A DNA stretch of 64,000 nucleotides. It comes from Octopus vulgaris (taxonomy: Eukaryota). This document shows, piece after piece, positions 19,155 to 19,630 of the stretch (its first letter is position 1; the number at the start of each line of letters is the position of its first letter). The stretch covers positions 70,990,001-71,054,000 of the forward strand of contig OX597832.1 in assembly GCA_951406725.2 (NCBI GenBank), read 5' to 3'. The notes below the pieces were generated by a model. It did no database searches. It was not told where the DNA came from and saw nothing but the letters and a program-made list of their open reading frames with translations. The translations under genes and the position numbers were made by a program.

Positions 19155-19630
19155 GCAGCAAAATTTAGGAACGGCCATAATAGGCCATTCAACCCACTAG
19201 AAATAACAGCCAAGGCTTCAACCGCAAAACAATATTAATTCCGTAAACCAGGAGAAAATTAAAAAAAACATTTACCCTGTAATACTTTATACGATGCATC
19301 GTTTCGTCTATTCTTTAATGGTAAATCAACCTGATTAAATTAAATCAAGCTAATCTTCCATAGGCCGGTAGATTCATCAGTAAAGTCAGCCAGATCGAGT
19401 CAGCTCCACTACTGTCTCTGCAATATCTGACCTAAAATTTTCAAATCATCGCACTCGCGCCAAATTCATCGGCAGCAAATATAAGCTGCTGATTCCATTA
19501 CGGAATTAAACAGAAAATTCATAATTAATCAATATAGGGTGGCAAAAAATTTCGCAGAATTTTTTTGGCACCAGCGGCCTAGTGGGAAAAAAATTCTGCG
19601 AAATTTTTTGCCACCCTATATTTTGATTAA
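19155..19630 (-). mobile_element. Short non-coding HHR element with 5' hairpin (PLE terminus or retrozyme-like)
   Basis: Flanked by (AT)n on both sides. HHR at 19284-19386. 36-bp perfect inverted repeat 19531-19566/19587-19622 at the 5' end. No ORF. Confidence 0.7.
19284..19386 (-). ncRNA. Type I hammerhead ribozyme with long stem II
   Basis: ACUUUA-CUGAUGA-A-UCUA...UAGA-C-GAAA-CGAUGCAUCG-UA-UAAAGU. Inner helix GAUUAGCUUGAUU/AAUCAGGUUGAUU is fully paired using G-U. Confidence 0.9.

Follow-up and report, generated by a model that had tools for sequence, protein, structure and literature searches.

A hammerhead ribozyme insertion of Octopus vulgaris as a probable truncated copy of a non-LTR retrozyme family with two-armed insertions in (TA)n

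Retrozymes and PLEs as the closest described systems

Metazoan non-LTR retrozymes consist of non-coding units in tandem, each carrying one type I hammerhead; their GC content lies below 50%, the unit is highly self-paired, and they occur as monomers, dimers and multimers (PMC7229834; bioRxiv 10.64898/2026.07.22.740005). Mobilisation of retrozymes by PLEs was proposed by Cervera & de la Peña in 2020 (PMC7229834) and is backed by the pLTR homology described in vertebrates by Li, Clavereau & Pollet in 2026, where only one of nine predicted retrozymes cleaved in vitro (bioRxiv 10.64898/2026.07.22.740005). Their re-entry into the genome via PLE enzymes acting on circles has so far been proposed from co-occurrence and likeness to pLTRs.

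PLEs leave characteristic scars: a tail at one end, inverted copies and a bias for (TA)n (PMC8557442). They cut and extend both strands, the tail being the stretch between two internal start sites of reverse transcription, and the PLE studied in that work is predicted to be a dimer (PMC11167929). In EN+ PLEs of the Neptune/Nematis type and in Poseidon PAc, partial tandems and an inverted, 5'-truncated arm accompany the one-end tail and the (TA)n target, and a type I hammerhead lies upstream of two internal end points (PMC8557442, PMC11167929). Non-autonomous Chlamys PLEs such as MRC1 are ORF-less, form insertions of multiple copies arranged head to tail and are biased towards microsatellites; hammerheads are missing from most of them, and their 3' sequence is shared with an autonomous family (PMC8557442).

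Here, we analysed a 476-bp insertion at 19155..19630 of the window, a 64,000-nt stretch of the Octopus vulgaris genome. We conclude that it is very probably a 5'-truncated copy of a non-LTR retrozyme family, which a PLE targeting (TA)n likely copies in trans. The family is an unusual form of a known class: it shares the retrozyme features listed above, and the testable ones are found in it, namely a hammerhead per unit, short tandems, non-coding sequence and low GC. Its units measure 470-495 nt, as compared to 170-400 nt in PMC7229834 and 51-972 nt in bioRxiv 10.64898/2026.07.22.740005. Known here from DNA alone, it differs from described non-LTR retrozymes in a 68-nt stem II with a likely pseudoknot and in two-armed insertions, with ends termed E1 and E2, in (TA)n. 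Such insertions, a 100-nt tail and this form of ribozyme are absent from the available text of both retrozyme papers, and the word 'inverted' occurs 0 times in that of PMC7229834. Our literature search, in which most subscription journals lay outside coverage, found no paper on a cephalopod retrozyme, and the available text of an octopus repeat annotation gave 0 matches for 'ribozyme' (PMC13282606). The family is young and abundant and carries the PLE insertion scar directly.

The window copy and its hammerhead

The insertion amounts to approximately 0.9 of one ORF-less tandem unit and lies between two (AT)n target tracts, as a preliminary description had noted: (AT)51.5 with a 100% match at the E1 end (19052..19154) and (AT)12.5 at the E2 end (19631..19655). 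Also in agreement with that description, no credible ORF overlaps the element. Its 476 bp had been taken for a single unit with a 5' hairpin cap, whereas comparison of copies resolves them into two arms. The main arm is 438 nt on the minus strand (19155..19592), 5'-truncated and with its 3' end at the fixed site E1; numbered from the cleavage site, it runs through unit positions ~164-484 and then 1-133, with a private 17-nt deletion near 19395 relative to other family copies. The inverted short arm is 38 nt on the plus strand (19593..19630), copies unit positions ~197-233 and ends at the fixed site E2, an end that recurs in other insertions. In query coordinates, positions 1-38 repeat positions 75-110 in inverted orientation, and other copies match from query position 39.

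The short arm and its template at 19531-19566 make up the 36-bp inverted repeat reported earlier. That repeat is indeed exact and the longest one (19531-19566 / 19587-19622), but it marks a second, inverted arm and not an RNA cap; the arms join inside a shared A/T run at 19587-19593. The apparent 5' hairpin thus results from a 438-nt E1 arm meeting a 38-nt E2 arm; we discarded the readings that take it for an RNA cap or for a terminal inverted repeat. As it contains one ribozyme and less than one unit, the window copy would be unable to release a monomer or circle by itself: it is a defective member, from which little is learned beyond what the family as a whole shows.

On the minus strand, the main arm carries the type I hammerhead that had been proposed, with a GUA triplet and a 68-nt stem II (19284..19386); it was read from the sequence and is accompanied by covariation. 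Stem I is 6 bp long (ACUUUA 19386-19381 / UAAAGU 19289-19284), the core consists of CUGAUGA (19380-19374) and GAAA (19305-19302), stem II spans 19373-19306 and stem III is palindromic (CGAUGCAUCG, 19301-19292), with cleavage predicted between 19290 and 19289. The motif had been called perfect; in fact position 10.1-11.1, at the base of stem II, is an A·C mismatch, where the axolotl retrozyme HHR_Amex2 has U·U. Across 195 family copies this position is A·U in 99, A·C in 60, A·A in 20, G·U in 12, G·C in 3 and U·A in 1, and the core is intact in 112/121 ribozyme regions.

The distal part of stem II is a long, G-U-rich helix of 4 + 14 bp with a 6-nt loop (19319..19361, minus strand), identified by folding and covariation. 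The 13-bp helix with four G-U pairs claimed for it was recovered on the minus strand (19355-19343 with 19336-19324), as was structure specific to that strand: predicted folding energy is -27.2 kcal/mol (z -2.8) there versus -18.1 kcal/mol (z -1.0) on the plus strand. In this helix 97.6% of alignment cells are paired, with eight pairs varying on one side and two on both. Across the hammerhead alignment of 35 ribozyme regions, 98.0% of cells are paired (at most 46.5% in slid controls), and 61 cells are changed on both sides compared with 21.7 after shuffling (0/500). Counted by pair instead of by cell, double changes (9 versus 7.3 shuffled) are not significantly enriched among these related copies (49/500). 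Core and fold are kept across subfamilies that are 72-87% alike, and the hammerhead covaries among them. In the MFE fold of the region, the core is engaged in alternative pairing instead of the catalytic fold, and no hammerhead family appears among the best 150 of 192 Rfam matches. From homologous systems we infer cleavage by this ribozyme and circularisation of its product.

Hammerheads stabilised by a pseudoknot have a helix of at least 4 bp joining stems I and II, which speeds the ribozyme, and tolerate a mismatch at 10.1-11.1, there U·U (Perreault et al. 2011, PMC3088659). Comparison of copies revealed a 4-bp candidate of this type, GGCU 19391-19388 with GGCC 19366-19363 (19363..19391, minus strand), which would join the 4 nt 5' of stem I to an internal loop of stem II. 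Unlike in the hammerheads of PMC3088659, stem II is very long and has the partner strand of the pseudoknot in its internal loop, position 10.1-11.1 is A·C, A·U or A·A, and the ribozyme is a predicted one. All four pairs can form in 183/189 copies (6 of the 195 were skipped), as GGCU/GGCC in subfamilies A and C and as GGUU/AACC in subfamily B. Independent double changes number one or two here; when the 7 common (distinct) combinations were shuffled, the result was not significant (1490/10000), and in the whole-unit fold the 5' strand also takes part in a competing upstream helix. We consider a stem I/stem II pseudoknot, new here, likely in this hammerhead.

Whole units modelled as circles are strongly structured (z -5 to -10 for five units with 15 shuffles each; antisense -3 to -9), and their consensus fold has 100 pairs, of which 11 are doubly changed. 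The helix CUAGUGGG/CCCACUAG closes a domain that holds E1, and the E2 hairpin comes after it. Just upstream of E1 the consensus fold places a hairpin common to the subfamilies, GAAYGGCC/GGCCRUUC (19169..19190, minus strand), pairing unit positions 104-111 with 118-125; the pair 107-122 is U-G, C-G or U-A.

A second, unrelated hammerhead element occupies 22520-22990 (+) of the window, nested in the 3' UTR of a PLE fragment unrelated to it. It has a stem I of UGCAG/CUGCA, CUGAAGA at 22777, a stem II of ~64 nt with U·U at its base, an inverted arm and an (AT)n end. The search returned 4,010 candidates for it, with two fixed 3' ends ~90 nt apart; 25 loci contained no tandem, and the 6 kb upstream of three longer copies gave no RT match.

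A dispersed family of two-armed insertions

A search of the 2.8-Gb genome for the element returned 1,749 candidates, 40 of which were scored, and copies are dispersed over nearly all chromosomes. A subfamily ribozyme 21-mer has 248 exact matches and an E1 hairpin 22-mer has 4,683, with 0 for each reversed control. The window copy belongs to subfamily A; subfamily B (2,249 candidates) is 76% alike to it, and subfamily C, with a 492-nt unit, 87%. The length of 50 cleavage-to-cleavage monomers ranges from 450 to 497 nt, 27 of them being 483-486 nt. Unit GC is 36.6%, and frame-breaking indels between units leave no coding capacity; among mapped insertions, neither an ORF with RT and GIY-YIG within the unit nor an LTR pair was found. 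A seven-unit array at L244 with 0 substitutions indicates that the family is still young. The unit is likewise covered by contigs of runs labelled as other organisms, in 30/30 bins for organism C and 26/30 for organism B. None of the sequence records holding the unit is listed as RNA, and a circle junction would equal a tandem junction in sequence. Contigs of runs guessed to be RNA were considered as a sign of expression and discarded, because they cover neighbouring repeats too.

Within (TA)n, copies consist of two arms arranged head to head with their 3' ends outward: E1 (unit position ~132) terminates one of them and E2 (~235), ~100 nt further on, the other. This pairing holds in all 75 insertions with both ends called, drawn from a ribozyme-motif sample of 53 loci (27/27, the other 26 having one end called), a best-hit sample of 43 insertions (29/29, 14 with one end called) and an E1-motif sample of 34 loci (19/19, with 12 having one end and 3 no end called). 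For subfamily B, a motif caller gave nine E1/E2 and four E1/E1 insertions; alignments place E2 at one outer end of each of these four, and the E1/E1 calls, probably caused by a TA-like internal junction, were set aside. Approximately 150 distinct insertions, a hand count by locus coordinates with flanks of 1.5-4 kb, were examined, probably out of well over 1,000. One insertion outside a microsatellite, L249, has a target duplication of 10-13 bp.

In contrast to the fixed 3' ends, 5' ends are spread evenly over the unit (152 arms), with no clustering at the cleavage site: 4/152 end there versus ~4 expected, after nine pieces at the ruler's end were dropped. The preliminary description had foreseen uniform-length or tandem ORF-less copies, of which the tandem, ORF-less part stands while length varies. 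It had also named, as the finding that would make this an ordinary truncated PLE, longer copies that all extend into a PLE ORF with random 5' truncation. What follows in longer copies is another unit: 58/152 arms exceed one unit and every one of them continues into a further ORF-less unit, never a PLE ORF. This favours the earlier proposal of a non-autonomous, PLE-mobilised ribozyme element, while the extremely truncated PLE offered beside it finds no support in any of the ~150 insertions.

One could nonetheless view the element as what extreme 5' truncation has left of an ordinary autonomous PLE, its 3' end or pLTR, with the tandems being pLTR repeats. Its scars are those of PLEs, its 5' truncation is random, Xenopus retrozymes resemble pLTRs (bioRxiv 10.64898/2026.07.22.740005), and the insertions examined are a sample of a much larger set. 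We nevertheless judge this very improbable given the uniform continuation into further units, the arrays of up to nine complete units without an ORF, and the separation of nearby PLE matches from the copies. PLE protein hits near copies proved to be separate insertions in the six cases read (L025, L168, L148, L211, L203 and L249), parted from them by (TA)n or unrelated DNA; nine further cases (L117, L130, L132, L153, L162, L222, L224, L267 and L272) were judged from coordinates only.

Tandem arrays and an inverted repeat would also be expected of a satellite or of a MITE-like DNA element that recombination or a DNA transposase had spread; the hairpin would then represent a terminal inverted repeat, and the ribozyme motif would be incidental. 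The E1/E2 ends largely refute this, as they are different sites of the unit and not a common terminal repeat. Random 5' junctions, dispersal over nearly all chromosomes and strand-specific structure with G-U and compensatory changes argue against it as well, and we give it hardly any credence compared with a retrozyme family copied by a PLE.

Elsewhere in the window, an inverted repeat of ~47 bp surrounds an (AT)n run (30497-30644) and may be a two-armed insertion or a MITE. A near-perfect palindrome of ~125 bp (41043-41167) has weak microRNA-family matches below Rfam thresholds.

Candidate mobilisers and the template

That the mobiliser belongs to the PLE class is well supported. A PLE that shares its (TA)n tract with the array at L168 belongs to a young family (L233:2083-4425, minus strand; L169-L198, L233-L240; with an upstream ORF1) that has many open 781-aa frames carrying RT and GIY-YIG. 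Its linker C-x4-C-x2-C fits the Neptune motif of PMC8557442, and we call it Neptune-type by that motif. Its hammerhead-like motif is minimal: UUGAUAA replaces CUGAUGA (U3/A8), and stem III is CAUG. The family ends in (TA)n at two sites, without (14/30) or with (16/30) a tail of ~30 nt; one of eight longer stretches is a head-to-head E1/E2 arrangement. No sequence shared with the unit was found in this family, in the PLE family of window 21840-22420 (30 loci) or in one L025-type PLE copy. Whereas Chlamys MRC1-type elements do share sequence with an autonomous family, the partner PLE here is deduced from the scars. Compared to EN+ PLEs, the octopus family has no ORF, an elaborate instead of a minimal hammerhead and no sequence in common with the PLE families tested here; its tail of ~100 nt exceeds the 30-40 nt of described PLEs (PMC8557442, PMC11167929) and the ~30 nt of the local Neptune-type family.

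For insertion, a PLE reverse transcriptase-endonuclease would bind the RNA at its folded domain, which lies downstream of the cleavage site, and would cut both strands of (TA)n. One target strand would prime cDNA synthesis at E1 and the opposite strand at E2, after which the truncated ends of both cDNAs would be joined. PMC11167929, in its available text, found no strand difference in the start site, whereas the scars described here imply one start site per strand.

Since arms run through the cleavage site, the template would be either a circle or an uncut multimer, and we hold the chances that circles are the template to be about evenly balanced. Units are mostly far closer within an array than between arrays. 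At L244, seven units over both arms differ by 0 substitutions; differences within the insertion are 0-5 at L253 and 0-3 at L274, versus 12 and 18, respectively, to other arrays. Equally close units exist elsewhere for L044 and L255. Across both arms, 40 rare alleles are common to all covering units. At sites covered by at least three units, 82 rare alleles occur in a single unit, 11 in all and 12 in a subset; a single-circle template leaves these 12 subset-shared sites, seven of them in L020, unexplained. L020 and L044 contain more than one unit type, and the units proximal to the junction are alike on both arms.

These mixed insertions are what one would expect if the same family and PLE machinery used an uncut linear multimer transcribed from genomic arrays, with the ribozyme dispensable for mobility and circles playing no part. 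The lack of clustering of arm ends at the cleavage site points the same way, as does the finding that ribozyme mutants left insertion unaffected and that unprocessed RNA was the main substrate (PMC11167929). Set against this are the closeness of units within insertions such as L244, L253 and L274, the distribution of rare alleles, and the retention of ribozyme core and fold across subfamilies; we put a linear template only a little below an even chance. Our most novel proposal, which we advance tentatively and would sooner doubt than accept as a whole, is that a circular ribozyme RNA with its own RT-docking domain, unlike any resident PLE in sequence, induces a PLE dimer to initiate at two positions separated by 100 nt, one for each target strand, rolling round one circle from both ends of the (TA)n cut, and that its hammerhead is an undescribed, pseudoknotted long-stem-II form.

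For in vitro priming assays, the family offers a 485-nt substrate with two mapped start sites, and a strict rule of one start per strand bears on how PLEs build their second end.

Several other elements were recorded in passing. L203:2520-3300 and L211:500-1480 belong to another (TA)n-targeting, Neptune-like family with a tail of ~35 nt and head-to-head arms; the TA tract that it occupies there also contains copies of subfamily B. At L087, on the minus strand downstream of a PLE match, a 575-nt tandem dimer ends in (AT)n and has a 19-nt match to the pre-E1 segment of the unit; it is possibly another non-autonomous family. The window also contains broken RT/GIY-YIG pieces of PLEs that represent at least two families, at 15473-16920 (-), 21840-22420 (+) and 54564-55760 (+). 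At 42590-47330 (+) lies a LINE that is nearly complete, with frames for ORF1 (zinc knuckle) and RT; by eye we take it to be L1/Tx1-like.
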